Shown here: positions 8,458 through 41,210 of the stretch, piece after piece
Layout of the letters: the number at the start of each line of letters is the position of its first letter
Numbering within the stretch: position 1 is the first letter of the stretch
From: Ostreococcus lucimarinus
Taxonomy: Eukaryota
Assembly (NCBI GenBank): GCA_000092065.1
Contig: CP000587.1
Reading direction: 5' to 3' (one strand)
DNA length: 64,000 nt
The notes under the pieces: model-generated
What the model was told of the DNA's origin: nothing
Databases searched by the model: none
The model's input: only the letters and a program-made list of their open reading frames with translations
Translations under genes and position numbers: made by a program

Positions 8458-11400
8458 ATGGGCGTCGATCGCGCTCGCGCTCGTAGGTTGACCGAGAGCG
8501 AGAACGATGACGACGACGACCGAAGTCTCGACGCGCGCGAGGAGGTTGGAGATGGTGACGACGAGAGTGACGAAGAAGATGTGGACGGGGATAGTGTTGT
8601 ACGCGCGTCTCTGGAACGCGCAAGCGAGCGAGATGCGGAGATTGCGGATGAGAGGGATACGCGAGTGCGAATACTTCTCATTCGCGAACGGGACGCCGAG
8701 TTCGCGCGAGATCCAAAATTTAAATCGCGATCAATCGCCGAGTTGAACAACGAAGCCGTGCGATATTTGAAAGCCGGAGACGATGTCAAGTGTGTGGTGG
8801 CTTACGCCAAGGTGTTTCGAAAGGTTTCTGAAAACAACGTCACGCACCCGACGCTATACGTGTGCCACTCAAATCGCGCATTCGCGTACTTGAACTTGGG
8901 TCTATTTCAAGAAGCTCTGTGGGATGGCCATCGCGCGCAGACATTGGCGAATGAGCGTTTCACGCAGTTACAAGATGACGACGGGAGTGTCAAGGTTTTC
9001 GTGAAGGGTTACGCGAGGAAGGGTTTCGCGCTCATGGGTTTGCGGGAACCGAAACTCGCAAAGCTCGAGTTTGAGCGCGGATTAACCATGAGCCCGACCG
9101 ATGAGGAATTGAAGCGCGGTTTGGAAGAGGCAACGCAAGCAGTCATTCGTGATTTATACATCGGACGCGGAAAAGAGAAACAATATGCCCTGCCGAGCTC
9201 CGGGAAAACGAGTGAGAGAATTTCGTCGCTGCCGTACTCGGCGCCGCTTCACCGTGTGCATCCTCGCGATATGCTGCCCAACACGCTATTGACCCCATTC
9301 CAAGCCGAAAATGATTATCATCTGAAGGACACGTACAATTATATGACGATTCAAGCCGATATTCGCGTCCCGAAGAGACATTTCAAGGTTTTACAAGACG
9401 ACGTTCGGCGCGCCAAGTTCTCTACGGCGATTAAATGCGCAATCGACAAGATGCACGACGACGCCAAAGATGCACGAGTTTTGAATATCGGTTGCGGTGC
9501 GGGATTAAATACAATGTTGGCGTTGAAACACGGTGCGCATCACGTGACGGCTACCGAGCGCTGGCTGTACCTCGCCATGGCTACGAAGGAGAATTTGTTG
9601 AACAACGGATACAGTGATGACCAAGTCAAAGTCGTGTACAAGCGTCCGACTGATCTCGCGTTGCTTCGCGATGTCCCAATATCGTGCAACGTGTGCGTGT
9701 GCGATGTATTTGACGACGGTTTGCTGAGTTCGGGGATCATTCCCGCCGTTAGGCATGCCTTGGACAAGCTATTGTTGCCAGACGCAGTCGTCATTCCGTC
9801 GAGCGCGACGCTGTACGCCCAAGCCGTCGATATGCGCACGCCCGCCTTTGACGGAATCAATCTCAGCGCGATAGACGGTTACAGATGGCACCCAACGTAC
9901 ATTGCAGGCATTGATTTATTCGAGAACGCGTACATCACTCTGAGCGATCCTGTGCAAGTGTTCCAATTTGACTTCCTCATGCCGCCAGACTGTAGCGAGA
10001 AGAAGACGATTGATTTAACGTTTACGAAGCGCGGCAAGTTCAACGCCGTGGTGTTTTGGTACGAGATGACTTTGATTGATGATGTGAAAATTTCAACAAA
10101 ACCTGGTGGTGAAGATTGTCCTTCTTCGATGCGCGCCGCTGTCCAGTTCATGCCCGGGAAAATATCAATAGAAGAAGGCAGCGTGTTGCCACTCACGTGC
10201 GCGCACAACACAGTCGGTATACAGTTTAGTGTCGAAGATGCAGAGTACGATCAAGTGACGAAAAAAGATGCCAGTTTTCCAAAATATCACTTTCACATGC
10301 TTCGCGATGAGGGGCGTCTGCACGCGTATTCGGACGCCCTCGGGCGTCAAGTTGCGCGAATCAAGGCTCGCGGAGACACGTGCAGGGCGCTCGACATCGG
10401 CACGGGAAGCGGTATACTCGCCATGCTCGCCGCGCGAGCGGGTGCGGATTCCGTCGTCGCTTGCGACACGCATCCATCGCTCGTGAGCGTCGCTAGACGA
10501 AATGTTGCCGCGAATGGTTACGGATCTCAGGTGAGCGTCCTGAAGCGCGACGCGACGCAACTCGAACGCGGCAAGCATGCGCCATACGACGGCGTTAATC
10601 TTATCGTTCTGGACGTCTTCGACGCCGGACTCACCGGAGATGACGTGTTGGACATGATAGAAGCAGCCCGTAAGCAATTGAGCGCATCTACGTGCGCAGT
10701 CGTTCCCGCGGCGGCGACGATTTATTGCGCAGGCATCGAAGCGTACACAAGCGAAGTCGACGGTTTCAACATGAGCGCCTTCAACAAGTATAGATGGGAC
10801 AGCACGTACGAGGCGACGTACATGCGAGACCAGCCTTACCGAGTGTTGACAAAACCCAAAAAAGTATTCGAATTCTTCTTTGATGACTCCCAGAAGAGCA
10901 AGGGCAGGGAAACCGTGCTAAAGATGGAGACAATCGCGCACGGCTACATGAATGCGGTGTGTTTTTGGTTTGATTTGCACATGGACGAAGAAGAGACGAT
11001 TACGACGGCACCGCTAGGGATTGGAAAGGGTGGTACAATTGAAAATCAACGCATTCTCGGCGACTTTGACGGTGCGCATGCGAAAAAGGTCATGTGCGAA
11101 TCTCTTCGCAGAGTTCGAGCGAACATGGCGTCGAATCCACGAAGCGAAGACTTTGAAAGCGACTCTGCGCGCGAGGGATCAAGCGACAGGACCGTTTTTG
11201 TCTCCGATGCCACGTCCTTAGGAGATGATGAATTCGACGACGACGATCGCGAGGAGCACTATTGGGGGCAGGCGCTGCAATACCTCGAACGCGGCGTCCA
11301 GGTGCGCGCGGGAAAGAAAATCGCGCTCTTGGCCAAGCGACAAAACGGCGGCGTGCACTTTAGTTTAAAAGAGGGCGTCGGAAATTGGGTAGGAAAACCA

Positions 11401-26256: not shown

Positions 26257-26884
26257 ATGGAGACGAGCTTGCGTTACGACACCACCTCGCGTTCGCTTTC
26301 GCTCTTCGCCAAGGAAAGATTCACGAATTCGGAAGACGTCGTTCTCACGGTACGCATCGCGATGAGACGCATTCCAACGACGCATTCCGACGACGACGCG
26401 CTCGTCGCAATCCGCTGACGCACCGACGCCTTCTTCTCGCGCGCAGGTTTCTGGGAGTCTAGACACTCGCGATGGGCGCATGGACGGTAAAGCACACGTG
26501 CGCAAACGACTTTTCTCCCCGGCGAAGTCCTCGCCGCTCGTACCCGATCGCGCGGACATCGGATTGACGTACGAGACGAAGCTGGACGACGTGCGCTACG
26601 GCGCGCGGGCGCGCAAAACCGTGGACGTGTCGCCGTCGAAGGATGGGATGAGCACGGTGACATTGAGAGGCGGGGTATCGTACGGGGTGAAACGTTCTAA
26701 GCCCTTGATCGAGGGTACGATAGAACTCACGCACAAGGTGTTCAACTTTCAAGAGGACCAAGACTTGCGCTTGCGTGTCGGGTACGATTTGGTGAAGCGG
26801 GAACCGTACGCACATATTCGCGAAAACAACTGGAGTTTCAAGACTGATTTCCAAAAGAGTTGGAGCGTGTACTATGACTTGTAG
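26257..26884 (+). CDS. OEP21: Chloroplast outer-envelope pore protein OEP21 homologue, 2 exons: 26257..26349 and 26447..26884
   Basis: Exon 1 METSLRYDTTSRSL...DVVLT|GTACGC matches the pea OEP21 N-terminus METSLRY. Exon 2 after gcgcag| continues VSGSLDTRDG... and ends VFNFQEDQDLRLRVGYDL...PYAHIRENNWSFKTDFQKSWSVYYDL (pea: VFNFQKDQDVRLRIGYE...[26 protein letters not shown]). Confidence 0.7.
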
Positions 26885-27063: not shown

Positions 27064-28413
27064 TCACGACGCTGCTGCGGCTGAAAAACCCCAAAAGTCG
27101 TCGTCGTTTGCGCCGTTTGAGTTGAACGTTTGACGCGGCGTCTTGGCGCGCTTTGCGATCCGCGTCGCTTTCGGATTTTTATCCAAGACGCGCCGCTGAT
27201 GCGAAGTTCTTTGCTGTACAGAGTGCGGTATGAGTGTCGGTGATTGCGGAGGGAGAGGGAGGCCCGGCAAACCTATGGACGCGCTACGAACGCTTTCCCA
27301 CGGAGTGCGTTCTCGTTCTGGCGTATTCCTTTCATCCAGCTGTGGCGAATCATCACTGCCAATCATGCCTTTAGACTTCACCGTGGCCACATCGAACTCT
27401 TTTACAGCTTCTTTTCTCAGCTCGTCCACTTCAGCCATCGGACGCTTCATGGCGACCGTCTGCGGGGCAGGCTTTCGCTTCGTCGTCACCTTGGCCGTTT
27501 TTTGAACTCTCAGTCGCGACGGATTCCTTTGAGCCTTCGAGCCATCTAAAGTCTGCGAACGCTTAATGATATCCCCGACCGCATCGAGTAGTACAGCTGT
27601 TTCTAATTCATGATCGCTATCCTGAGGATCGTTTTCGTCGACTCTGTTGGCGGAATACGTTAAAAACTCGAGCAACGCGTCTTGGCGATGCGATATTTTC
27701 ATTCGTTCCGAGTACTCTAGCTCTGCGAGCGTCTTATGGCAGTCTTCCGGCTTGAAAATGCTCTGCAAACCATCTTCGTCGCTCGCCTCCATCTCGCCTC
27801 TCGGTACGACGAGCACACCCGAACGCGACGAAATGAAAATCTTCTGCTCGCCCGTGCGCAAACACTTGACGCCGAGCGCGCACTTTAACTCCGCTCTTCG
27901 ATCGCAATGGCGAGACATGAGATCCCAGAGTCCGTCTGGACCGAGTGCATCTATCATAGGCTTGACATACGGGCCCGGAAACCCACGAAGAGCTTTCAAT
28001 TCTAACGATTCTGCGTCGACGAGGAGGTAGTCGGCGTCACCGCCCAAACCTTCGCGCAGTCTATTCGCCATGCTCGCGTTGCGCTCCTGCGAATCGTGTT
28101 CATCCATCGACTTCCCACCCGATTGTGGATGAAACAACATCTTGTTCGCCCATTCCAGCTTACTCTCCACGATCTCACGCAAATCTCCTTGAGTCGCGGC
28201 GACGCGAACTTGCACCGTCCCGAGCACGACTTGTTGCTTAATGGCCTCCTCCGCGTTTGTAAATACGTACGCGGTCTCGCTGAACGTTCGCGCGCTATCG
28301 GTGACGTAGGCCACGCGCAAACACTTGTCGCACCCCGATTCCCGCTTCGCAGGACGTCGGTTCATGCTCAACGACGCTCCACGGCGCGCGTCGAGACCAA
28401 CAGCCTCGCGCAA
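27064..28413 (-). CDS. Ham1/ITPase-fold paralogue with degenerate N-terminal catalytic motif and ~250-aa basic/disordered C-terminal extension
   Basis: Central block DAESLELKALRGFPGPYVKPMIDALGPDGLWDLMS... parallels the canonical ITPase at 38887. The N-terminal motif reads VAYVTDSARTFSE where ITPases have [FI]ATGNxxK. The C-terminal tail is unassigned. Confidence 0.6.
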   Translation of the reverse strand: MREAVGLDARRGASLSMNRRPAKRESGCDKCLRVAYVTDSARTFSETAYVFTNAEEAIKQQVVLGTVQVRVAATQGDLREIVESKLEWANKMLFHPQSGGKSMDEHDSQERNASMANRLREGLGGDADYLLVDAESLELKALRGFPGPYVKPMIDALGPDGLWDLMSRHCDRRAELKCALGVKCLRTGEQKIFISSRSGVLVVPRGEMEASDEDGLQSIFKPEDCHKTLAELEYSERMKISHRQDALLEFLTYSANRVDENDPQDSDHELETAVLLDAVGDIIKRSQTLDGSKAQRNPSRLRVQKTAKVTTKRKPAPQTVAMKRPMAEVDELRKEAVKEFDVATVKSKGMIGSDDSPQLDERNTPERERTPWESVRSASIGLPGLPLPPQSPTLIPHSVQQRTSHQRRVLDKNPKATRIAKRAKTPRQTFNSNGANDDDFWGFSAAAAS

Positions 28414-28779
28414 TTACACACCCCGCGCACGCCCGATGTTTTCGATCGCGCGCGCCGCCGCCGCCGCGCGCGACGCGTCAGAGTCCGGGCGCGACGCTGG
28501 TATCGTCTGTCGTCGCGCTGCGATCGTCCGCGCGACTTCGGGATGCTGTATCCGACGCCATGTGCCGCGAGATCGTTCGCGCGCGCCGACCGCGTCTCCG
28601 CGGACGGTTTTCGGAGACGGGCCTGCGTCTCGGTTCGCAAACCTCCGATCGGGTTCCAGGCACCCGAGGCGCGCGCAGTCCGGCGACAGATTTTTCATCC
28701 CTCGGCGCGCGCGAAATCGGTCGGTCGGTGGGTGCCGGATTTCCGGATTCCCGTCGACGTCCTCGCGCGGACGTCGTCG

Positions 28780-28900
28780 CGCGGACGTCGTCGTCGTCGT
28801 CGTCGTCGTCGTCGCGAGGCGCGTCGCGGCAGTGGAAGACGCGAGCGCGACGCGAGCGCGACGCGAGCGCGACGCGAACCGACGCGAACCGACGACGGTC
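28780..28900. repeat. GC-rich simple repeats, (GTC)n and a 13-bp gcgagcgcgacgc x3 tandem, in the CUL1 / ITPase-like divergent intergenic region
   Basis: Direct reading: gacgtcgtcgtcgtcgtcgtcgtcgtcgtcgc; gcgagcgcgacgcgagcgcgacgcgagcgcgacgc; gacgcgaaccgac x2. Confidence 0.7.
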
Positions 28901-29064
28901 CGCGCCGCCGCGATCGAACGGCGCGGCGCGACCGAGGCGCGCGCGCGGCGGTTTGCGTTTGATTTGGAATCTCGTCGTTCGTTCGCATCGACGCGCGAGT
29001 TTCGTCGGGTTGAGGGCGCGAACGCGGACGACGCGCGAGCGAGGGACGTTGGATGAACGGAGGA

Positions 29065-31551
29065 ATGAGCGATCGACGCGTGATCGCGCTTGAAGATGGT
29101 TGGGGGAACATGGAGGTGCGTCGACGGACGATTTGGAATCAAACGCTCGAGGACGCCGAGAGCTCGCGAGGCGCGGGAGAAACGAGACGTACTGACGAGA
29201 TCGTGACGTTTGACGACGCGCAGGATGGTATCATGAAACTTAGACGCATTCTAGATCAGGAGGATGCGGAATCGTTCACGTCGGAAGAGTACATGAATCT
29301 TTACACGTGCGTAGGACGACGCGTTGACCGCTCGCGGGGCGGTTGGGGGCGCGCGCTCGCGCGCTCGCGCTCAAAGACCCCCCGAAACAAGTGGCGCGGT
29401 GATCGCATGGACTGACGCAATCCAACAACATTTACACGTTCTTGCAGGACGATTTACAACATGTGCACGCAGAAGGCGCCGTACGATTTTTCCGAAGAGT
29501 TGTACAAGCGCTACGAGGCCGCGTTTAACCAATACATCAACTCAAAGGTTTTACCGGCGCTCGTGGAAAAAAAGGGAGAGTACATGCTGAGAAGCTTGAT
29601 GAGTCGATGGGAAAATCACAAGATAATGGTTCGCTGGCTGTCTCGGTTCTTCAACTATCTCGACAGATACTACGTCCAGCGCCATCACTACGCGACACTC
29701 AATCAAGTCGGCGTGGGTTGCTTCCGAAGACTGGTGTACGAAGAAATCAAGCCGAGCATGAAGACGGCGGTGTTGGCCCTCATAGACAAAGAGCGAGAAG
29801 GAGAAAAAAGTGATAGAGGTCTCATCAAGAGCATCACGTCAATCTTCGTCGAGATGGGGTTGGGTACGATGGACGCATACCAAAACGATTTCGAAAACGA
29901 CTTGCTCACGCACACATCATCATTTTACACTCGCAAGGCGACGCAGTGGATCGCTGAAGACTCGTGTCCGGCGTATCTCATCAAAGCGGAAGAGTGTTTG
30001 CATAGCGAACGCGAACGTGTGCAACAATACTTGCATCAGAGCACCGAGTCGAAGTTGATATCAAAGGTTGAGCAGCAGCTCCTCGAGCAGTACGAAACTG
30101 AGCTGCTGGAAAAGGAGAATAGCGGTTGCGCAGCGCTCTTGGTTGACGACAAGAAGGAGGACCTAGCCCGCATGTTCCGTCTCTTTAGCTCGGTACCGAA
30201 AGGATTGGCGCCGATAGCTCAGATTTTCAAAACGCACGTTCAAAAAGAAGGGATGAGCCTGGTGAATTCCGCCGAACAGGCGGCGGCGGCGATGAAAGGG
30301 AACAAGGAAAAGCCGACGACGTCTACGTCGATTGAACAGGTCTTTACTCGAAGTGCGATCGACCTGTACGACAAATATAGTGGTTATGTGAACGATTGCT
30401 TTGGTTCCAACGCACTCTTCAACCGCGCGCTCAAGGAGGCTTTTGAATACTTCTGCAACAAGGGCATCGGTGAAATCTCGACGGCGCAGCTACTCGCAGA
30501 TTTTGCGGATAAGCTGTTGCGAAAGGGTGGGAGCGAAAAGTTGAGCGATGAGAAGATGGAAGAGACGCTGGATAAAGTTGTGAAGCTCTTGGCATACATC
30601 AGCGATAAGGATATGTTTGGGGAGTTTGCTAGCAAAAGGCTTTCTCGACGCCTGTTGCAAGACACGTCTGCGAGTCAGGATTATGAGCGCTCCATCTTGA
30701 GTAAACTCAAGACGTCGTGCGGCGCGCAGTTTACATCGAAGATGGAGGGTATGGTGAATGATGTGCAGTCTGCGCGAGACACTCAAGATGTGTTTGAGAG
30801 ATGGGTAGACGAAGACGCTGCTAATCGCAAGACTTGCATCGATTTCAACGTCACCATCTTGACGCACGGTTTCTGGCCTTCATGGAAGCCCATCCAGGTG
30901 GAGCTGTGTGACGAGTTCGCGCAGTGTGTGGAAACGTTTCAAACTTTCTATGATGCTAAGATGAGCCAAAGAAAGCTCACGTGGGTGCATCAACTCGGAG
31001 CAGTCGTGCTAAACGTCAAGTACGAAGCCAAGACTATAGAAATGCACATGCAAACGCCCCAATGCTCTGTTTTGTTGCTCTTTCGGAATGAAAAAGAGCT
31101 GTCGATGCAAAAGGTCATAGAAAAGACAAAAATGCCAGCTGATGCCGTGAAGCGAGCGCTCTATTCGCTCTCGTGTGCCAAGTATAAGATTCTGAACAAG
31201 TCCCCCGAGGGCAAGACGGTGAATCCCGAAGACGTCTTTTCGTTTAACGAAAAATTCACCGATCGTTCGCGACGCATCAAGATTGCATTGCCACCTCCCG
31301 ATGAGAGAAAAGCTACGATTGAGAACGTCGTACAAGATCGCCGTCATGCCATCGATGCAGCCATCGTGCGAGTGATGAAGACTCGCAAGGCGTTGGCATA
31401 CAACGAGCTCGTCGTCGAAGTCGTGAACCAACTCCAACAGAGCTTCCTCCCGGAAGCAAAGATGATCAAAATGCGAGTCGATGACCTCATCAACAAGGAA
31501 TACATCATGCGCGACGAAGAAAACTCGCAAGTTTTCAAGTACATCGCCTAG
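29065..31551 (+). CDS. CUL1: Cullin-1 (SCF scaffold), 3 exons: 29065..29115, 29224..29306 and 29448..31551
   Basis: Exon 1 MSDRRVIALEDGWGNME|GTGCGT. Exon 2 gcgcag|DGIMKLRRILDQEDAESFTSEEYMNLYT(ac|GTGCGT). Exon 3 ttgcag|g-[14 protein letters not shown]... The spliced N-terminus aligns to Arabidopsis CUL1 ([26 protein letters not shown]...[22 protein letters not shown]). The rest matches along the full length, including the neddylation-region and C-terminal blocks (IVRIMK...; KMRVDDLINKEYIMRDEENSQVFKYIA). Confidence 0.9.
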
Positions 31552-31683
31552 TTAGTTTACTGCAAATGAGAGATACGCGGCGCAACACTTGTTTTCAATC
31601 AAGGACGTTCGTAACAAATTACAACTCGGTCCGCTCTGTCTCCCTCCCCCATACTAATGTGTCTAACAAGTCCTCTCGCACGC

Positions 31684-32682
31684 TCAAAGAGTGACGTGGT
31701 TGGGGCGCTTGTACTTGATGATCGTCTTGGAGGCCTTGCTCGGGTGACGAGTCACCTTGGTCACGACCGGGAAGGACAAGTCGTCTTGAATGAACTGGCG
31801 CGTGTTCTCGCGGCGAACATCCTTGTCGGCAACCTCCGCAATCTTAATGATTTGCAAGCACGAAGCACGCACACGGTGGCGGGAAGCCATTTCCTCGTAG
31901 AGCGCATCCACCGCCGCGTTCATCGTCGTCTCGCGGTACTCCTTATACGAGTTGTGGTAACCCGTGCGGGACTGGTAACGGATCCAGATGCCGAAGTTCT
32001 TCACGGTCGTCGTGTCCGCCTCAAAGATCTATTCGTCATTGTGAACGAATCAACACTCGTCAGTCTCTCATTCCGCGTTTTTCATCGTCGCGACGCGCGT
32101 TTAACACGATTCGCGTCGCTCAAAGTCGCGTTCGCGTCCGCGTCCCGCTCTAGGGCTTTCACCCATCCACAAAGACGCACCTCGTTGCACGCGATGATTT
32201 GGCCGTTCGCCTTCTTCACCTTCTTGAGGCGAGACATGAAGTACCAGAACTTCGATCGCGCCTTGACGTCATCGAGCGCCCACAACTTCATGCGGAACAC
32301 CTCCGGCTCGGGGTGCGCATCGGTCGGCACGTGTCGGCCGACGACTTGGTATTGGTGGTACTGCGTCGAGCAATCATTCGCGCGTTTTCTCGTCAGTCGA
32401 TCGTTCGTCGAGCGCTTCGATCGCGCGCATCGCGAGCATGAAATTATCTTCCCCCGAACGCGCCGCCGCGCGCGCGACGTCCGCGCGCGCGTCCCACCGC
32501 GCGCGCGTCGTCCCATCGTCCCGTCGTCGCCCGTAGGGTTTCGCCGCGATCGCTCCGTCCGACGCTTTCGCGTCTCGCGTCGCGCGCGCCGCGCCGCGCG
32601 CGCCGCGCGTCGCGCGCGCGCGTCATCGTTTTCGCATCTCGCGCTGTCCACCGCGCGCGCCACGCACCCTAATTTTCGCCAT
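31684..32682 (-). CDS. RPL18A: 60S ribosomal protein L18a (eL20), 3 exons: 32668..32682, 32181..32360 and 31684..32028
   Basis: Exon 1 ATGGCGAAAATTAGG|GTGCGT (MAKIR). Exon 2 gacgcag|[14 protein letters not shown]...[16 protein letters not shown]. Exon 3 aatag|[26 protein letters not shown]... Arabidopsis RPL18a is [14 protein letters not shown]...[17 protein letters not shown]. Confidence 0.85.
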
Positions 32683-32857
32683 CGTTCGCGACGCGTCGAG
32701 TAAAGAGGTCGATGGCGCGGCGCGATGGCGCTCTTCACCGCGGGGCGAGCGACACACGGACCCTCCGGGTATCACACACGCCACCAGACACCCCCCGAAA
32801 CGGCCGACGCCGACGCGCGCGCCGCACGCGGCGACGCGCGCCGGCGACGCGCGCGCG

Positions 32858-33805
32858 ATGTCGCACGTCTCGGCGCGCGCGGCGATGCGGTCGTCGTCGA
32901 CGTCGACGGCGACGAGGACGAGGACGAGAACGACGCGCGCGCGCGGAGGGGATCGCGCGGCGCGCGGGGACGGTGGAGGAGGCGCGATTGCGACGGTCGA
33001 GCGCGGTTCGGCGCGCGCGACGACGCTCGGAACGCGCGCGCGACGGCGAGTCCTCGCGCGCGGGACGGCGTCGAGCGGAGACGAGGGACGAGAGCTTCGA
33101 AGACGCGCGGCGGCGGCGGTGGGGCGAGCGGCGGCGGCGAACGCGAGCGCGAGCGCGTCGGCGAACGCGCGGCGACCGAGAGTGGACGATGGAACGCGCG
33201 ATGGAGCGGTCGGGGACACCGCGTTCGAGCGGTCGGGGGGATTACTGTACGTGCGAAATTTCTTTGAACCCGAGACGTTCGAGCGCGTGGCGGCGGAGTG
33301 CGAAAAATTGCGCGCGAGCGTGACGCCGGAAAATAGAGCGTGCGCGCGGCAGAGGCTGGGTGTCATGGTACCGTCGGATAATTTCGTGCACGAAGCCTGC
33401 GTGGCGAGCTCGGTTTCTGATCGCCTGCGATCGTTATTGCTCGGTGAAAATGACGACGCGGGTGCGTTGGTCGCCGGCGACGTACCCGTGGAATTCAGAG
33501 TGTACCCCGTCGGCGGGTCGATGGACTGGCATAAAGACGTCGCGTTGTACACGAAACCGCAGTATGAAATAGTATTCACGGTGACAAACACGAGTGATAG
33601 TACGACGGAGTGGGAAGATGAGAGAACTGGAATGCGTTACGGCGGCTGGACCGAGCCAAACTCGGTCATCATCGTTCGCGCGGATGGCGCTCCGCACAGA
33701 GTGACGGGCGTGACGAGAGGTGAGCGTTCGATCATCAAGTTCGTGCTCACGCAAACGCTGGAGAAGACGGATGATTTCTTTGATAACCTTCTCATCTACA
33801 CGTAG
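32858..33805 (+). CDS. 2OG-Fe(II) oxygenase superfamily protein with S/T/R-rich (possibly organelle-targeting) N-terminus
   Basis: HxD...H facial triad candidates (DWHKD; APHRVTG) plus a downstream RSIIKFV basic residue in the C-terminal ~200 aa. The N-terminal half is low-complexity and the start is uncertain. Confidence 0.5.
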   Translation: MSHVSARAAMRSSSTSTATRTRTRTTRARGGDRAARGDGGGGAIATVERGSARATTLGTRARRRVLARGTASSGDEGRELRRRAAAAVGRAAAANASASASANARRPRVDDGTRDGAVGDTAFERSGGLLYVRNFFEPETFERVAAECEKLRASVTPENRACARQRLGVMVPSDNFVHEACVASSVSDRLRSLLLGENDDAGALVAGDVPVEFRVYPVGGSMDWHKDVALYTKPQYEIVFTVTNTSDSTTEWEDERTGMRYGGWTEPNSVIIVRADGAPHRVTGVTRGERSIIKFVLTQTLEKTDDFFDNLLIYT

Positions 33806-33842
33806 TCAGTTAGTGGCTAAACAAGTTGTTGTATAATACAGT

Positions 33843-35408
33843 TTAGCGAGGCATCCGAAATGCCAAGTATCGCCGAACCCATCGCTCGTAATCCTCGCGT
33901 ATGATCTCCCAAATCGCGAGAGACAGCTGCTCTTTCTTCGTCGGAGGGTGAATCATCGTCTTCACTACTGTGTTTCGCAGGGCGATGTTCGATTTTTTGT
34001 TCACGCCAGCGGAGTGACGCCAAATCGCCGACTTTGTTCGATCTGCGACGTCGATGGAGTCACCAAATCCGAATCGCTCGCCAGCTTCAACGATTCTAAG
34101 CCTGACCGCGGGTGCTTGCAAGACGTGTTCTACGCAACTCGACACGTGGAAGTCTACGGCGGCGATCGGTATGTCGTCGCGGCGCATGAAACCACCCCAC
34201 GTCTTGGCTGCATCCGTTGCTTCTCGCGCGGCGTCGAATGCGAGTTCGAGATACGAAAGCCACGGCGACTTATCGTCAATGATTTCCGGATTGCGCAGCT
34301 CGTCGTACTCGAGCGGTACATCATTACTTTTTGCCGTCTGCTTGAACCGATTGAACCATACGTGCGAAAAACCGTGTAACATGGCGACGTCTCCGGGCAT
34401 TCCGCCAAAGTGCGCACGAATCATCAAAGCCTGAACGACGGTGGCCTCGGCCGCCGGCAACGCGGCCTCGACGTCATTGAGCGCGAGCATGCCACTGGCT
34501 GAATCGCCAGCGACGCCGTACGAAACGCTATCTTTGATGCGGATAGCCGCCATTTCGCCAGCTATACGAGCCACCGCGGCGCGCAACGCGTCCGTCGGCT
34601 CGAATCCTTTGCTCGTCGCGCACATGAGCCACGTCAACAGTACGACATCTGGATGCAGGATAGCATCTTCTAATGAAATGATCACGAGTCTACGGACGCA
34701 TTCGATGAGCGCTTGCGGGTCTAAACACATGTGCATGGCTACGCGCGAAGCAGCAGCAGCGCGACCTCGCCTGATATTCTTCTGCAATGCGGATTTGATC
34801 ACGCTCAACTTGAGCTGTTCGCCATCTGCACTCGCTCGACTCGCGCGAACTTCAGCGTACTCTTTCGCGTCCCGTAACGCTTCGCGCAACGCGTTCTCTT
34901 GATCTGGACCATCGTCGCTCGCGACGTCCGTCATCAACTTTAGCGTCGTCGAACACGTCGTACCGCTCGCCAATTTCTCTTTAACCACGACTTGACTCGC
35001 CCACTTCGCCGAAGATTCCGCCTTAATAGATTTCCCCAACGACAACGACACGTCCCAACGTGAACGCGCCGCGTCGTAGGTCAACAAAAATATGCGCTCG
35101 CGCTCGCGCTCGCGCTGCGCCGCCATCATGCTCGCGAAGGCGTTCGTCGCCGGTTTTGGTTTTGTCGCCGGCTGTTTCTCGGCAACCTCAGCATCGCTGT
35201 CGCCATCCTCTCGACGTTCACGTATAATGCACGTCCCGACGTGAGATTCCAAAAGCATCTTGGCAACGTTCTTTGCGCATAAAGGACACCGTTCGAATCG
35301 CGACGATGAATCCGTGGAAGTTCGCGCCTTCTTCGCGCCGTCCGCCGCGCTCGGCGTCTTAACAGCCGGTGCAAAATACGCGGCGATGCTCCCTCGTTTA
35401 TGCGTCAT
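33843..35408 (-). CDS. UBZ4 (Rad18-type C2HC) zinc-finger protein of unknown function
   Basis: N-terminal C-x2-C-x11-H-x3-C (RFERCPLCAKNVAKMLLESHVGTC). ~460 aa downstream are largely helical with no recognisable catalytic motifs. Confidence 0.55.
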   Translation of the reverse strand: MTHKRGSIAAYFAPAVKTPSAADGAKKARTSTDSSSRFERCPLCAKNVAKMLLESHVGTCIIRERREDGDSDAEVAEKQPATKPKPATNAFASMMAAQRERERERIFLLTYDAARSRWDVSLSLGKSIKAESSAKWASQVVVKEKLASGTTCSTTLKLMTDVASDDGPDQENALREALRDAKEYAEVRASRASADGEQLKLSVIKSALQKNIRRGRAAAASRVAMHMCLDPQALIECVRRLVIISLEDAILHPDVVLLTWLMCATSKGFEPTDALRAAVARIAGEMAAIRIKDSVSYGVAGDSASGMLALNDVEAALPAAEATVVQALMIRAHFGGMPGDVAMLHGFSHVWFNRFKQTAKSNDVPLEYDELRNPEIIDDKSPWLSYLELAFDAAREATDAAKTWGGFMRRDDIPIAAVDFHVSSCVEHVLQAPAVRLRIVEAGERFGFGDSIDVADRTKSAIWRHSAGVNKKSNIALRNTVVKTMIHPPTKKEQLSLAIWEIIREDYERWVRRYLAFRMPR

Positions 35409-35715
35409 CGCCCGAGACGCGCGCTCACCGCGAGTTCACAGTGTTCGTCGTCACCTCTCGCACACTCACTCGTATCGCCTCGCTCAATCCTTTCGCGTCG
35501 TGCAACGACTTCGTAATCAAGATTTGAACTCTCGCGATGGCGTCCTTGGGTTCGATTTTCGACGTCGTCGCGGCGTGGCCTCCGATCTTCTTGCGCGATA
35601 TGGGAAAGTCGTTCGCGCGCGTCTCCCTCGAGCGTTTCATCGACGCGCGACGCGCGGACGAGTGAAGTCGGTGCGCGAGGCGCTGAGTTGTTTTGATTTG
35701 CTCGGGCTATCACAG

Positions 35716-36984
35716 CTATCGCGCTACTTCTACAGTTCTACTCTTTTCCTTCTTTTCCTTCTTTTGCTTCTTCTCCTTCTTGTCCTTCTTCTCCTTCTTC
35801 TCCTTCTTCGCCTTTTCGTTTTTCCGACGCGCGTCGTTCTTCGCAACGTCGTCGTCGTCGTCGTCGCCGAAGTCGGTTCGTCTGACGCCCGTCCACTCGC
35901 TCTTCAACACGCCTCTGCCGCCGAGACCTCGCTTCGTGCCCTTGGCGACGTTTGTTTCGTGCGCGGATTTAAATAAAGCCTCTTGATCGTTCTCGGTGAA
36001 TCCCTTGCCGCGCTTAGCGCGATCGGCGCCGTCTTCGTCGTCCGCGGCGCCGTCGTCGTTCAAGTCGCGCTCGCGTTTCGAGCCGACCAAGCCGCCCCAG
36101 GCGAAACCCGCGCGCGTCCACCAATCGCTGAGTTTGGTGCTCAAAGACTTTTCACCCTCGTACGACACGCCCGAAGGTCTCACCGTCGTTTCGACCGCAC
36201 CTTCGCCGTCGGATTTGCGCTTTTTCTTGTCCTTCTTAGACTTTTCCTTTGGCTTTTTCTTCGTCTCCGCGGCGGCGGGCGCCGACGCGCTCCCGCGTTG
36301 AATCCCATACTTGGCCAACTGTTCCGCCTCAAACTTTGCGATGCGTTCGAGCTTACCCACGCGCCCACCGAACGTGGATCCGCGATGATTATCCTCCGCC
36401 AGCTCTCGCATGAGCTGCAAATCGCTCTTCGATCCGCTAAACGCCACGCCGTCGCGTCCCGTCGCCGTCCCCAGTCTCGCCGCGACTTCATCCTCGCTCG
36501 AATCCTCGCTCTCGCTCGAGTCTCCATCGCGTCCCGACGTCGACGTCGACGACGTCGTCTTCCCATCCTCCTCGCCTCCGACGACGCGCGCAATCTTGCT
36601 CGCCGCGTTCGCGTACGTCCCCTCCCACCACTTTTCGTCCCACGCGTACCTCGTCTTCCTCTTCCCCACGCCCGCGTTATCCTCGCGCTTCACCACCTCG
36701 ATCGCCTCCGCGCGTCCGTGTCGTCTTTTCCCCAGTCCATCGCCCCTGTCGCGCGCGCGGGGTCGTTCGCGCGCCGTCAGTCTCCGCTCTTCTCTTCGGG
36801 GTCGGGCGTCCCGCCGCCGGTCGTCGGTCGCGTCGGTCGCCTCGGTCGTCGGTCGCGCGCACTTGGACCATCCCATCGCGCGCAGCACGCGCTCGCCCAT
36901 GCCGCCGTACGACTTCGCCCCCGGCGCGGCGTCGTGCGTCGGCACCTTCATCGCGTCGTCGCCCGCGCGCGTCTCTGCGGGCAA
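35716..36984 (-). CDS. PINX1-like G-patch protein with Lys/Glu-rich C-terminal tail, 2 exons: 36863..36984 and 35716..36745
   Basis: GERVLRAMGWSK (aa|GTGCGC) ... cgacag|g-GDGLGKRRHGRAEAIEVVKREDNAGVGK rebuilds a G-patch (human PINX1 GQRMLEKMGWSKGKGLGAQEQGATDHIKVQVKNNHLGLG). The 117-nt intron is in frame, which is why the ORF track reads through it. The C-terminus is a KKEKKEKKDKK repeat. Confidence 0.65.
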   Translation of the reverse strand: MPAETRAGDDAMKVPTHDAAPGAKSYGGMGERVLRAMGWSKCARPTTEATDATDDRRRDARPRREERRLTARERPRARDRGDGLGKRRHGRAEAIEVVKREDNAGVGKRKTRYAWDEKWWEGTYANAASKIARVVGGEEDGKTTSSTSTSGRDGDSSESEDSSEDEVAARLGTATGRDGVAFSGSKSDLQLMRELAEDNHRGSTFGGRVGKLERIAKFEAEQLAKYGIQRGSASAPAAAETKKKPKEKSKKDKKKRKSDGEGAVETTVRPSGVSYEGEKSLSTKLSDWWTRAGFAWGGLVGSKRERDLNDDGAADDEDGADRAKRGKGFTENDQEALFKSAHETNVAKGTKRGLGGRGVLKSEWTGVRRTDFGDDDDDDVAKNDARRKNEKAKKEKKEKKDKKEKKQKKEKKEKSRTVEVAR

Positions 36985-37094
36985 CCGTACCCTGTACGCG
37001 AGTCGCCGTCGCCGGCAACCCCCCTGCGCCGCACCTCGCAGCGCGCTGCACGCGCGAGCGTCGCGAGCGAAACCCGAGACGCGCGTCGCGAGCG

Positions 37095-37739
37095 ATGTTT
37101 AACGCGATGCCGCGCGCGTCGCTCTCGCCCGCGTCGTCCTTGTTCACCTCGCCTCGCGTCGGCGTCGATTCGGACGTGTCTTTGACGAGTGTTGTGGATA
37201 ACCACCATCGGCGGGCGCGCGTCGTCGGTCGTCGCGCGCGACACGTCGCGCGCGCGTCCGAGGTCGACATCGACGCTGGTAAGTACATGCTCGAGCGCGA
37301 GGACTATCTGTTCGTCGATTGCCGTTCGTGGAAGGAGTACGACCGCTCGCACATCACAAAGCCGCCGGCGAAAACAATCAACGTGCCGCTCGCGCAGGAC
37401 GCGAGCGTGGAGGATTGGGTGAAAGCCGCGCGAGAAAAGACGCGACCTGGTATGAAATTGTTGATCGTCGACGCCGATGGGGCGAGAGTGGCGGAGTTGG
37501 TAAGCGGGCTCGAAGCCGCGGGCTACACGAACGCAGTCCCGGTGGCGGGCGGCTACGCGGCGTGGACCGCCAAGTACACCACGTTCGGGCGTAAAGTGCC
37601 ACCGAAAGGGAAATTCGTGAGTACGGGGAAGGAGGCGTTGAAGAGCGGGTTGGATCTCGATCCCAACGTCGCGAGCGCGTACGAGGAAAACTGGGGTCGA
37701 GCGCCGCCGAAGTACGGCGAGGAGGCCAAGTCGGACTGA
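37095..37739 (+). CDS. Single-domain rhodanese/sulfurtransferase-like protein with a predicted N-terminal transit peptide
   Basis: YLFVDCRSWKEYDRSHI...AVPVAGGYAAW is a rhodanese-fold signature. The N-terminus MFNAMPRASLSPASSLFTSPRVG is Ser-rich. Confidence 0.65.
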   Translation: MFNAMPRASLSPASSLFTSPRVGVDSDVSLTSVVDNHHRRARVVGRRARHVARASEVDIDAGKYMLEREDYLFVDCRSWKEYDRSHITKPPAKTINVPLAQDASVEDWVKAAREKTRPGMKLLIVDADGARVAELVSGLEAAGYTNAVPVAGGYAAWTAKYTTFGRKVPPKGKFVSTGKEALKSGLDLDPNVASAYEENWGRAPPKYGEEAKSD

Positions 37740-37879
37740 GACCACATTCGGCCGATCGCGCGTGTAATTAAAGCATTGATGTCAGAAACGTACATTTCAG
37801 AAATAACCTTCGCCTGCGCTCGGCGTCGTTTCGTGGAGGACGGTTCGCCGCCGTCCGCGTCGCGCGTCGCGCGAGCTCG

Positions 37880-38785
37880 ATGACGACCGCCGCGACGGTG
37901 CGAGTATCGCCAGACTTTGCCTCGCCTCGCGCTATGAGACCGATACCCGGTCCCGCAAACGCCTTCGCGTCGCGTGAAAACATCGCACACGCGCGCGCGA
38001 ACGGTGAAGGCGACGAAGGTGCGCGTGAGGCGACGCCCAACGACGCGACGAGTTCAAATCCCGCGGCGACAGCTGAAGATGTCCTCGACGCCGCGCTCTT
38101 CGCGTCCGCGCCTTGGCGCCGCGCGCTGGACGCCATCGACGTCGAAAACTTCGACCCGAATCGTGCGGAGTGTAAATACAACGTCGCTTGGTTGCGTCGC
38201 GGTGGATGGCGATCGGGAAGGGCGCCGCGCGTGGCGGGCGCGCTTCGCGAGCTCGGCGCTACGTCGAACGGCGACGGCGCGGGAACGCTGTGCGATCCCA
38301 CTGGTGAGATTAGAGTCATCGTGCATCGGGAATTGATGATGAGTGAGCGTGCGCTTGCCTCGGGCTGCGCGGTGGTGCTGCGAGACGTGCCGGTGTTGAG
38401 TGTGGATGCCACGGCGCACGCGCTCGCGGTGACGAGCGAAAACTTAGTGGCGGTGTTTGAGGCAGACGTCGATGCGTACGCTGCGAGCGCAGCGAAGCGA
38501 ACGAGAATCGAGCGCGAAGCGTTGCGAGAGCGGTTAAGAGAAAGCGCGGTGATCGAAGCGGTGAGCGGAGTCGACTGGGAAGACTTTGAAGACGTCGCCG
38601 GAGATTTTTCCGGGTACGGCGGCGACGCGCCACCCTCGGCTGAAATCGACCACAACGCGCGCGATGAAGAGACAGTGCACACGGACGAAATGATGAATGA
38701 TGTGACGACCGCGCCCACGCCCGATGGACCGAGTGACTTCGCGCTGCAGCTTGCGGCGCTCTACGCCGACGACGGGGACGCTTGA
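37880..38785 (+). CDS. Hypothetical protein (acidic C-terminus; possible OB-fold core)
   Basis: Clean 301-aa ORF in an otherwise densely packed interval. There is no confident family assignment from the sequence alone. Confidence 0.4.
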   Translation: MTTAATVRVSPDFASPRAMRPIPGPANAFASRENIAHARANGEGDEGAREATPNDATSSNPAATAEDVLDAALFASAPWRRALDAIDVENFDPNRAECKYNVAWLRRGGWRSGRAPRVAGALRELGATSNGDGAGTLCDPTGEIRVIVHRELMMSERALASGCAVVLRDVPVLSVDATAHALAVTSENLVAVFEADVDAYAASAAKRTRIEREALRERLRESAVIEAVSGVDWEDFEDVAGDFSGYGGDAPPSAEIDHNARDEETVHTDEMMNDVTTAPTPDGPSDFALQLAALYADDGDA

Positions 38786-38886
38786 GTGCTTGACTGCATC
38801 GGCGATCTCTTCATAACCTCGCGCGCGAGAACGACGACGACGAACCAGCGGACTCGTGTTGACGGCGAGATAATCGACAAGCGCTC

Positions 38887-39549
38887 GTGCAACGCCTGGC
38901 GATGGCGTCAATCCCGACGCTACGCATCGCTTACGCCACGGGTAACCACGGCAAGTTTGCCGAAGCCAAGCACGTATTCAACAGACCGGAAAACCTCGCG
39001 CGAGCGAACGTGATTCTGCAGCAGTTCGACGTGGACACTGTTGAAATACAAGGCTCAAAAGTGGACATCAGCAAGCACAAGCTCAAAGAGGCGGCGACGA
39101 TTCTTTTTCAAGAGGCAGATGCGGGCGATTTTGATTACCTCCTCGTCGAAGACGTGTCACTCGATCTCGACGCCTTGAACGGATTCCCGGGGCCCTATTG
39201 CAAACCCATGCTTGAAGCGATCGGACCCGATGGACTATGGGACGTGATGTCCCGGTACGAAGATCGTAACGCGACGGTTACGTGCACGGTTGGAGCGATG
39301 GCCGTGCGAGCGGGGGGCTCTCGCGAGACGAATGTGTTTATCGGCTCTATCAGGGGAACGATGGTGCCTCCGCGAGGTGAAGTCAAGCACGGCAAGGCGT
39401 CGTGGAACAGCGTTTTCCAGCCCGCGGGATTCGCCAAGACGTTTGGAGAACTGCAGTTCGTGGAGCAAGCGGAGATTTCGCACAGGCGCATTGCGCTTGA
39501 GAAGTTTTTAGGAAACGCAATCGAGGCGGCGACAGAGGTCAACTGTTAG
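38887..39549 (+). CDS. ITPA: Inosine triphosphate pyrophosphatase (Ham1/ITPA)
   Basis: IAYATGNHGKFAEAK, LNGFPGPYCKPMLEAIGPDGLW and FGELQFVEQAEISHRRIALEKF are canonical ITPase blocks. The homologous start is the second Met at 38902. Confidence 0.85.
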   Translation: MQRLAMASIPTLRIAYATGNHGKFAEAKHVFNRPENLARANVILQQFDVDTVEIQGSKVDISKHKLKEAATILFQEADAGDFDYLLVEDVSLDLDALNGFPGPYCKPMLEAIGPDGLWDVMSRYEDRNATVTCTVGAMAVRAGGSRETNVFIGSIRGTMVPPRGEVKHGKASWNSVFQPAGFAKTFGELQFVEQAEISHRRIALEKFLGNAIEAATEVNC

Positions 39550-39599
39550 AAGATCTTGTAGCATGATTATTAGCCATATATAGATAGAACGGTGTCTCG

Positions 39600-41210
39600 T
39601 TAGTAGTACGTCGGATCATCGCGCGAGTTGCGAGACGGCCTCGCCCGTCTAGCATCGCCGTCGTCCCGAAACGGTCGCCTTTCGTCTTCGTAATACTCGT
39701 CCACTTCGTACTCATCTCTTGAGCGACCACCGCGACGTTCATTTTTACTTCGCGACTTGCCGAGCTCGACCGATCGTCGACCGATGAGAAACCAAATCCT
39801 AATCAACAATAGTGCGCGGCTCGGAAGCGAAAATAATTCCTCGACGACAATGTCTCGCCATTCTGCGAGCTGCCGAGCGTCGTTTTGCGACGAAACCTCC
39901 ATGACGGCTTCGTCGTAGTCATCTAACGGCTCGTGATCGTCCGCGAACTCTTCTTCGTGGAAATGCCGACCCAACCTGCGCGGTTGGCGTTTCGCGCCGG
40001 CGTTTCGCGCCGCAACCGCCACGTTCGCCACCGCGGCGAATATCGCGAGCGTCGTGATCCCGGCTGCGAGTGGAAGCACTTGCGATGAGGGTGTCGCGCT
40101 CACACCGACGCTCGATCGGCCACTGTTGCCGTCGAAACCTAGCGTGCTTCCGAGTGCGCCAGTCAGCGCGTTGAATGGATTTTGAGCCGTTTGGCGCGAG
40201 AAGGACGACGCGTCGCTCGCTGCCGACACCCCTCGTCGCGTTGTCATCGCCGACGACGCGCTCTGCGGAGATTTGCGCAAGTCAATCGCCAATGTAGGCG
40301 CTGTTCGACCCGTGGCTTCTTCAGCGAACTCGAGCAAAGCGCCGACGCTTCTGTCGGCGCTCGCGTGGCGGTACACCGGCCCTTTGCCCGCGGGCAAAGC
40401 GACGATGGTTGGAAAAGTCTTGGCGCGAAAGTATTTCGCCGCAAACTGCTTCATCTCAGCGCTATCGCATCTCAGCCGGCACACGCGCACGGTGGGGTCG
40501 TTGGCGTAGCACACCGCTACCGCCGTCCACGCCGGCTGCACGTCGTCGCACCATCGGCAATTCTCCGTCTCCACCAGCAGCATCACCGTCTCGTCCCTGT
40601 GCGTCAGCATCCCCACCACATCATCTCGCGTCAACTCTTCCACCGCGCTCGCGCTCACCACGGCGTGCGTTCGCGTCGTCGGCGCGCTCATCCGTCTCTG
40701 TTCGCTCCTCGACCGTCTCGCTCGCGCGAACTCCGCGTCGCGTTCTCGTTCGCTCATCGCCGTCGTCCGTCGACTCCCGTACTCTCCCACTTCACCTCGT
40801 CTCCATCGTCCATCATCATTCGTCGTCGGAATCAACAGCCGCTGTCCGACGTACAGCGCCGGCGCGTCTTCGTCGTTTCCTTCGTCGTCGAACCGAATCC
40901 CATTCGCCTCGCACACCGCCTCCGCGCTCGTCCCGTGCGCTCGCGCGATCTCGTTCAGCGTGTCCCCGTACATCACCGTGTGCACGTCGTAATCATCCCG
41001 ATCCCGATCCCTCGCTCGCGCGTCGTTCGTTCGCGACGCCCGCGCCGTCGTCGTCGTCGTCGTCGTCCCGCGCGACCGTTGGCGACGATTCCGCCGAAGA
41101 CGACGCCCGTCGCGCGTCGCGCCGCGCTCGATCGCGCGCGTCGACGCCGCGCCGCGCGTCGCGCGCGTCGACATCGCGGTCGTCTCCTTCGTGCTTCGCG
41201 CGCGCCGCAC
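39600..41210 (-). CDS. LysM-domain + thioredoxin-fold (CxxC) membrane protein
   Basis: LysM is YGDTLNEIARAHGTSAEAVCEANGIR...LYVGQRLLIP. The Trx-like block contains ENCRWCDD. One or two predicted TM helices (VLPLAAGITTLAIFAAVANVAVAA; WFLIGRR). Confidence 0.6.
   Translation of the reverse strand: MRRARSTKETTAMSTRATRGAASTRAIERGATRDGRRLRRNRRQRSRGTTTTTTTARASRTNDARARDRDRDDYDVHTVMYGDTLNEIARAHGTSAEAVCEANGIRFDDEGNDEDAPALYVGQRLLIPTTNDDGRWRRGEVGEYGSRRTTAMSERERDAEFARARRSRSEQRRMSAPTTRTHAVVSASAVEELTRDDVVGMLTHRDETVMLLVETENCRWCDDVQPAWTAVAVCYANDPTVRVCRLRCDSAEMKQFAAKYFRAKTFPTIVALPAGKGPVYRHASADRSVGALLEFAEEATGRTAPTLAIDLRKSPQSASSAMTTRRGVSAASDASSFSRQTAQNPFNALTGALGSTLGFDGNSGRSSVGVSATPSSQVLPLAAGITTLAIFAAVANVAVAARNAGAKRQPRRLGRHFHEEEFADDHEPLDDYDEAVMEVSSQNDARQLAEWRDIVVEELFSLPSRALLLIRIWFLIGRRSVELGKSRSKNERRGGRSRDEYEVDEYYEDERRPFRDDGDARRARPSRNSRDDPTYY

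Follow-up and report, generated by a model that had tools for sequence, protein, structure and literature searches.

A predicted inactive ITPase paralog with a disordered tail in Ostreococcus and its GATA-fused positional orthologs

Inosine triphosphatases (ITPases) of the Ham1/RdgB family (human ITPA, PDB 2J4E and 2CAR; Pfam PF01725) are generally treated as uniform single-domain housekeeping enzymes. Crucial residues of human ITPA include Glu44, Asp72, Arg178, and Phe149 (PMC9016069), and the Maf/ITPase fold carries a catalytic Asp, a conserved Lys, and an N-terminal metal-binding Glu (PMC3899018). The only re-purposed non-catalytic ITPase found in the literature searched was KomB (PDB 8ZSG, 9XVC, and 9V0G), which belongs to the Kongming anti-phage system of bacteria; this ITPase homolog is re-used as a non-enzymatic module that has lost hydrolysis but still binds deoxyinosine triphosphate (dITP), and it operates within a filament together with the SIR2 NADase KomC, switching on the effector (PMC13454610). 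A Ham1 domain embedded in a larger protein is also known from the potyvirid polyprotein (PMC9249622), and no paper combining ITPase with pseudoenzyme was found by full-text literature search. Here, we describe a 64,000 nucleotide (nt) stretch of Ostreococcus lucimarinus DNA (contig CP000587.1, assembly GCA_000092065.1; the whole stretch is termed the window) that contains a eukaryotic ITPase paralog, referred to as the long form, predicted to have no active site; selection maintains it, and members of its gene family are fused to DNA-binding modules (a GATA finger or AT-hook-like motifs). On balance, the long form is probably a nuclear DNA- or chromatin-associated protein derived from an ITPase, having become a pseudoenzyme after duplication.

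The window DNA was eukaryotic with 58% GC, dense in genes, and nearly devoid of introns, and its proteins shared 90%-identity clusters with O. lucimarinus CCE9901 proteins such as the cullin XP_001418588.1 and the long Ham1 fragment XP_001418810.1. A whole-window search identified two Ham1 loci and no others, and both Pfam and BLASTP supported the first-pass annotation of two Ham1/ITPase genes about 10 kb apart. The canonical ITPase (38887..39549, plus strand) encodes 220 amino acids (aa) from a GTG codon or 215 aa from the first ATG at 38902, covers positions 2-184 of the 186 in the Pfam Ham1p_like profile (PF01725; E=1.5e-31), and matched ITPA/Ham1 entries among PDB sequences (E=5.8e-25 to 6.2e-21). 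Its description as a textbook ITPase was borne out, as every catalytic position was intact, i.e., T14, G15, N16, K19, E44, K56, E71, D72, K89, W151, S176, H177, and R178 in human ITPA numbering; position 152 was N in this copy and in all green-algal sequences compared except P0043 (S; P and L numbers are our handles for proteins and contigs). The coding sequence of the long form (27064..28365, minus strand) comprises 433 aa plus a stop from the first ATG at 28365, and the open frame reaches a TTG at 28413 that would give 449 aa. The first ATG is also the start of an open reading frame (ORF) derived from an MMETSP transcript, and an identical 433-aa protein is present in a public collection. 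Ham1p_like matched the long form at E=1.7e-16 (61.1 bits, gathering cutoff 22.5) over profile positions 59-185 of 186 only. BLASTP aligned it with the canonical copy over 223 aa (40% identity, E=3e-49), pairing the N-terminal strands LRVAYVTDSARTFSE and LRIAYATGNHGKFAE; the ITPase blocks earlier recognized within 27064-28413 on the minus strand are therefore part of a homology spanning the whole domain, N-terminus included. The long form is a lineage-specific paralog of the housekeeping ITPase.

An AlphaFold2 model of the long form built from an alignment of 18 family sequences displayed a predicted local distance difference test (pLDDT) of 75-94 across aa 13-244. The best Foldseek matches of the domain were the human ITPA structures 4f95, 2car, and 2j4e (target TM-score 0.79-0.87; E about 1e-16 to 1e-17 over 222-234 columns), with Plasmodium Ham1, archaeal nucleoside triphosphatases, and KomB ranking after them. 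The model, the Foldseek matches, and a table of catalytic positions delimited a complete ITPase-fold domain at aa 16-240 (27646..28320, minus strand) that is predicted to be catalytically dead. The catalytic table was read in human ITPA numbering from 26 aligned sequences, comprising 20 canonical or GATA-fused and six degenerate long forms, and T14, N16, K19, E44, K56, and E/D71-D72 were invariant in 20 of the 20 canonical and GATA-fused sequences. In the long form, BLASTP and the multiple alignment identified a degenerate N-terminal strand and phosphate-binding motif (28282..28314, minus strand) that reads VAYVTDSARTF compared to the canonical IAYATGNHGKF. The motif of the T-G/S-N-x-x-K family has become T-D-S-A-R-T with T14 kept and G15, N16, and K19 replaced by D, S, and T, respectively; the alignment thus agreed with the previously noted exchange of TGNxxK for VTDSARTFSE and extended the losses to E44, D72, W151, and D152. 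Metal and catalytic sites were altered from E44 to A and from E71-D72 to D-A, and base-recognition sites from W151 to L and D/N152 to Q with S176-H177-R178 kept, plus F/H149 to A with a one-residue alignment gap close by. Retained features included K56, K89, and the cleft-lining GFPGPYxK loop (consensus GxPGxYxK).

The degenerate orthologs carried E/Q, D/A, or D/T at positions 16/19, P, D, or E at position 44 (A in the window protein), and A/V/L at position 72, and among them SHR was changed to SPR or SAQ, K89 to D, R, or G, and W151 to L, F, or V. Variant P0002 (L004), 98% identical in the domain, has P for A at the E44-equivalent position. All six degenerate long forms have replacements among the otherwise invariant positions; as the replacement residues differ between orthologs, no alternative catalytic set is conserved, and the loss of catalytic, metal, and phosphate residues with no conserved substitute makes inactivity strongly predicted. 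The long form is therefore expected with good reason to be unable to bind the catalytic Mg2+ or to activate water. The first-pass reading of a non-catalytic or re-purposed ITPase-fold protein was upheld in that 5-6 catalytic, metal-, or phosphate-binding residues invariant in the 20 relatives are replaced, and the conserved catalytic residues that would have spoken against it were not recovered on alignment, where N16, K19, E44, and D72 are changed. A gap in the BLASTP alignment revealed ~25-30 aa that the canonical copy lacks; this insertion (aa 77-109; 28039..28137, minus strand) ends with the long-form signature LRxGLGGDxDY, was modeled in part as a helix (aa 87-107), and includes columns invariant among long forms (R95, L103, R104, and G106-D110). 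The conserved core invariant in the long forms consisted of LGGDxDYLLVD, GxPG, WD..SR..DRRA, and LRTGE. Compared to canonical ITPases, the long form shares whole-domain homology, the fold, the GxPGxYxK loop, K56, and SHR but differs in the replacement of N16, K19, E44, D72, and W151/D152, in the insertion, in a 193-aa tail, and in being fast-evolving and confined to a single genus-level clade.

The long gene is expressed, has an intact ORF and a domain under purifying selection, and is not a pseudogene. MMETSP Transcript_5118 (Ostreococcus 'lucimarinus') was colinear with it and contained two ORFs corresponding to aa 1-146 and aa 150-433, the first of which begins with MNRRPAKRESG and includes VTDSARTF. 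An upstream exon restoring TGNxxK was considered and rejected because the degenerate motif lies within the open frame and aligns with the canonical one as its homolog, and the transcript ORF uses the same ATG; in addition, a segment coding for [TS][GS]NxxK was absent from every frame of 28200-29500, so that the spliced canonical N-terminus raised by the first-pass annotation was not recovered. Nei-Gojobori ratios of nonsynonymous to synonymous substitution (dN/dS) were calculated for the window gene against L003 (~90% protein identity) and L004 (98%), with domain values of 0.24 and 0.09 and tail values of 0.59 and 0.55, respectively, from 3-35 substitutions per class. The long-form ORF was intact in at least five lineages (window, L001, L002, L008, and L009). 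In the reference O. lucimarinus CCE9901 annotation, the gene is represented by XP_001418810.1, a 133-aa "predicted protein, partial" spanning 27658-28056 on the minus strand, i.e., the Pfam core only; the full 433-aa ORF, which adds the N-terminus and the tail, corrects this fragment. As a separate observation, the NCBI "[bacterium]" metagenome-assembled genome (MAG) proteins MDA9627205.1 (hypothetical) and MDA9627189.1 (cullin) were identical or near-identical to the products of window 27064-28365 and 29461-31551, respectively, and a picoalgal eukaryotic contig was evidently binned as a bacterium in that deposit.

Word-indexed searches with the long form returned six clusters only, and when all 1.84 billion representatives were searched by profile, only nine proteins scored below 1e-30 before a drop to ordinary ITPases. 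The gene order cullin, long Ham1, 134-aa ORF (opposite strand), E2, and ATP-binding cassette (ABC) transporter was found in the window, L001 (P0004/P0036), L002 (P0005), L008 (P0040), and L009 (P0041), of which the L009 contig stops short of the cullin side and L008 is O. tauri-type, its cullin clustering with O. tauri proteins. Orthologs of the long form in green algae, as envisaged in the first-pass annotation, were thus identified in several Ostreococcus lineages at the same locus, and judged from these searches and the synteny the family is narrow, Ostreococcus-restricted, and at a fixed locus. Neighboring proteins were 52-93% identical to those of the window compared to 31-45% for the long Ham1 domain with tails that were unalignable, placing the long Ham1 among the fastest-evolving genes of the region. 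The 134-aa ORF (26480..26884, plus strand) lies tail-to-tail with the long form and served as synteny anchor; it was 61-78% identical in other lineages, matched no Pfam family, and adjoined a long or GATA Ham1 form in seven lineages (window, L001, L002, L005, L008, L009, and L010).

The GATA forms comprised P0038, P0039, P0184, and P0185, single ORFs of 491-522 aa in which a complete Ham1 domain (E about 1e-30) is joined to a plant-type GATA zinc finger at the C-terminus (PF00320; E=1.2e-13 and 3e-10) with the spacing CX2CX18CX2C. The Ham1 and GATA fusion was represented by four clusters with 99 member sequences, and all catalytic positions of these forms were intact. The GATA form was followed by a small ORF in L005 (68% identical to window 26480-26884) and L010 (61%), and then by E2 in L005; since the same small ORF, and in L005 also E2, lies beside them, the GATA forms are positional orthologs of the window long form in two sister lineages. 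Across the family, an ITPase domain is coupled to a long C-terminal tail that changes rapidly. A different module was suggested by motif search in the tails of two other long forms, with a KKPRGRPxG core occurring three times in the O. tauri-type P0040, whose active site is degenerate, and an array of PRGRP/PGRP repeats in P0005; we take the RGRP cores of both to be AT-hook cores. The long form resembles GATA zinc-finger transcription factors and AT-hook (HMGA-type) proteins through the finger or the KKPRGRPxG cores of its positional orthologs and differs from them in that the window protein has neither feature. The GATA lineage L005 was also considered as Bathycoccus and this was rejected, as its HisA was 87.6% identical to the window HisA compared to 63-70% to that of Bathycoccus prasinos; by this measure, L005 is closely related to Ostreococcus. 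The searchable literature yielded no account of an ITPase-GATA architecture, and a full-text search found no paper linking Ham1 with a GATA finger or with these algae.

A bootstrapped neighbor-joining tree over 202 columns resolved the degenerate forms as monophyletic (99% bootstrap) on long branches and the GATA forms as monophyletic (100%), with both groups falling inside a clade of ITPases from green algae (94%), close to the canonical copies of Ostreococcus. The Kimura distance of the long form to the canonical copy was about 1.0. The canonical copy lies in a conserved order of Rhodanese, HROB, Ham1, and LysM in the window (37095-41210) and in L006/L007, with P0037 as its positional ortholog between the HROB and LysM genes; the HROB (homologous-recombination OB-fold) domain gene (37880-38785, plus strand; E=5.4e-22) is immediately upstream of the canonical ITPase. 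Lineages with the degenerate long form (window and L006) keep the stand-alone ITPase between HROB and LysM. In L011/L012 the HROB-LysM gap was just 81 nt (L011 2424-2504) and 22 kb of these contigs held no Ham1-like sequence, and the lineage with the intact GATA fusion appears to lack a stand-alone ITPase at the usual HROB/LysM site, a copy elsewhere in the genome being possible. The sample that contained the second GATA form (L010) also held a canonical gene beside LysM (L013, P0042), which suggests that one lineage may carry both the GATA fusion and a stand-alone ITPase.

The simplest scenario for this distribution would have four steps, in which the ITPase was duplicated locally in the Ostreococcus stem, one copy gained a long tail with a DNA-binding module, reciprocal loss removed either the stand-alone enzyme or the catalysis and finger of the long copy, and the tails were turned over repeatedly. 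Ostreococcus would accordingly display three states, namely an intact enzyme with a finger, the same with a stand-alone copy (probable, from contigs of one sample), and a dead domain with a stand-alone enzyme, which together form a compact natural series for the change from enzyme to regulator after duplication. The yeast galactokinase paralogs Gal1 and Gal3 are an established example of such a transition, Gal3 having a regulatory role. The likeness lies in a bifunctional single gene in one lineage versus an enzyme and a non-catalytic paralog in others; the differences are the unrelated fold and pathway and a regulatory role that for the long form is only presumed. The architecture and the series within a single genus are unexpected and open to testing, O. 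tauri being genetically tractable, with the provisos that the clade is narrow and the function indirectly deduced.

The C-terminal tail of the window protein (aa 241-433; 27067..27645, minus strand) is predicted to be disordered (pLDDT <50 at aa 245-308 and 322-433), evolves fast as seen from its dN/dS, and gave no Pfam match. It measures 193 aa, shorter than the ~250 aa first estimated. The disorder in its earlier description as a Lys/Arg/Pro-rich disordered extension held, whereas the basicity was only mild, with an isoelectric point of 9.7, 33 K+R compared to 27 D+E, 16 P, two basic clusters, and an acidic start. Similarly, the DDDFWGF motif lies near the C-terminus and the protein terminates in NDDDFWGFSAAAAS rather than in DDDFWGFS. 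Basic cluster 1 (RLRVQKTAKVTTKRKPAPQTVAMKRP; 27439..27516, minus strand) resembles a nuclear localization signal (NLS), and basic cluster 2 (HQRRVLDKNPKATRIAKRAKTPRQ; 27130..27201, minus strand) contains KRAK, a K-K/R-x-K/R pattern of the monopartite NLS type; these KRAK-type and KRK clusters may act as NLS and would place the long form in the nucleus. The acidic-aromatic motif DDDFWGF (27085..27105, minus strand) was invariant in P0001, P0002, and P0003, has acidic/Trp counterparts at the ends of long forms from other lineages (RDEWWNQ and SLWEIVCED), and may represent a docking or activation-type motif. The last 45 aa, including basic cluster 2 and DDDFWGF, were 91-96% identical among close variants, and P0002 from L004 has a 69-aa in-frame mid-tail deletion (window aa 278-346, ~27328-27534) that removes basic cluster 1. 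Searches by tblastn with the tails recovered only self and very close variants and not the other lineages, and the similarity between the window and L001 tails was not significant, 187 of 1000 shuffles being as good. The window C-terminus (KRAKTPRQTFNSNG...DDDFWGF) was also tried as a Cys-less relic of a GATA finger (KTPQWRTGP...) and rejected, since 347-1550 of 2000 shuffles scored equal or better.

The reading considered probable above, a nuclear pseudoenzyme associated with DNA or chromatin, would have the long form operate inside the nucleus, working on DNA, on chromatin, or alongside a partner there. The DNA-binding modules of the orthologs, which the first-pass annotation had no means of seeing, alter the likeliest function in this direction. 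The dimer-forming ITPase fold would be a structural module that possibly also binds a ligand, with targeting and docking supplied by the tail. Cleaning of the nucleotide pool would have been taken over by the stand-alone ITPase, leaving the long copy free to lose catalysis. For the window protein itself, we infer inactivity, nuclear location, DNA or chromatin association, and dimerization. Several points weigh against this interpretation. The window tail has no recognizable DNA-binding domain, with no Pfam match at E<=10, no Cys, and no RGRP, and DNA binding is extrapolated from orthologs whose tails do not align to it. Pfam reported no AT_hook in P0040 or P0005 even at E<=10 and the AT-hook call is motif-based. 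The tree was rejected as proof that the GATA and degenerate forms are sisters, this relation having only 29% bootstrap, so that their orthology rests on synteny. L011, with no canonical copy at the site, and L005, with the GATA form, are the same lineage only by inference, and the dN/dS ratios draw on few substitutions.

Among the alternatives, a nucleotide sensor is tentative but the best placed: by analogy with KomB, the dead domain might bind inosine triphosphate (ITP), xanthosine triphosphate (XTP), dITP, or inosine monophosphate (IMP) without hydrolysis and couple the purine pool to nuclear output. The retention of S176-H177-R178, K56, and K89 in the window protein, with losses mainly in metal and catalytic residues, would suit this role, as would GATA-fused orthologs that join a nucleotide-binding to a DNA-binding domain and the presence among the fold matches of KomB structures, whose mechanism offers a precedent (PMC13454610). 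However, SHR, K89, and W151 vary across the degenerate orthologs such that a shared ligand pocket is without visible constraint, and none of the degenerate forms retains the phosphate clamp N16/K19. The long form further differs from KomB in being eukaryotic, putatively nuclear, and without a SIR2 partner (no SIR2-type gene lies near it, the neighbors being cullin, E2, and the small ORF), with ligand-binding residues that are unconserved in orthologs; as it groups with green-algal ITPases, its origin is independent and any likeness to KomB is convergent.

A broader proposal is more speculative still and somewhat more doubtful. The ancestral ITPase-GATA protein might have been a sanitizing enzyme tethered to DNA sites and the derived dead domain a sensor of purine nucleotides (ITP/XTP/IMP) or a dimerization module coupling purine or nitrogen status to transcription. 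These proteins would then constitute an undescribed class of algal DNA-binding regulators, with the clades as successive stages from enzyme to transcription factor in one genus.

Pseudoenzymes often regulate their own active paralogs, and the long form could heterodimerize with the canonical ITPase to control its activity, stability, or nuclear delivery. ITPases act as homodimers in Trypanosoma brucei and human (PMC9016069), and the long form shares 40% identity and the entire fold with its paralog. We nevertheless regard such a partnership as unlikely, since the GATA-form lineage apparently has no stand-alone enzyme at the usual site and the family would therefore not need that partner, and an interface under tight co-evolution would fit poorly with the fast divergence of the domain (Kimura distance from the canonical copy about 1.0). 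It is harder still to credit that the long form remains an enzyme whose active site was rebuilt or whose substrate has changed; purifying selection on the domain and the retention of the fold, GFPGPYxK loop, K56, and SHR in the window protein speak for it, but the carboxylates E44 and D72 and the phosphate-binding N16/K19 are lost with substitutes that differ per ortholog. Least credible is a functionless relic drifting to loss with a frame open by chance, for while the low identity between lineages relative to neighboring proteins, the unalignable tails, the 69-aa tail deletion in one variant, and the truncated reference annotation would fit decay, no fewer than five divergent lineages have an unbroken ORF at this locus, the domain has a dN/dS of 0.09-0.24, a transcript is present, and the conserved core is invariant among long forms.

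The cullin ORF neighboring the long form (29461-31551) encodes 696 aa. The NCBI model of the same cullin cluster (XP_001418588.1 in the cluster) is longer at 745 aa, and an in-frame-looking ORF at 29053-29415 is directly upstream of the cullin within 29053-29460 on the plus strand. This suggests a 5' exon and intron of the cullin gene, in which case a shorter divergent intergenic region would separate the cullin from the long Ham1. A Micromonas-like contig (L014; GC 0.667, with the flagellar gene CFAP74 nearby) carried a single ITPase at 10001-10840 of 279 aa with an internal insertion. It was considered for polarizing the ancestral position and rejected, as its ITPase lies between HisRS and a methyltransferase and is syntenic with neither Ostreococcus locus. 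Ham1 domains were further encountered in long proteins, namely P0120 (3756 aa, Ham1 at 2648-2779), P0044 (796 aa, C-terminal Ham1), and P0167 (560 aa), which are possibly viral polyproteins or other fusions. In contrast to the long form, the domain in these proteins and in the potyvirid HAM1 is considered an active pyrophosphatase, and it is joined to unrelated partners.

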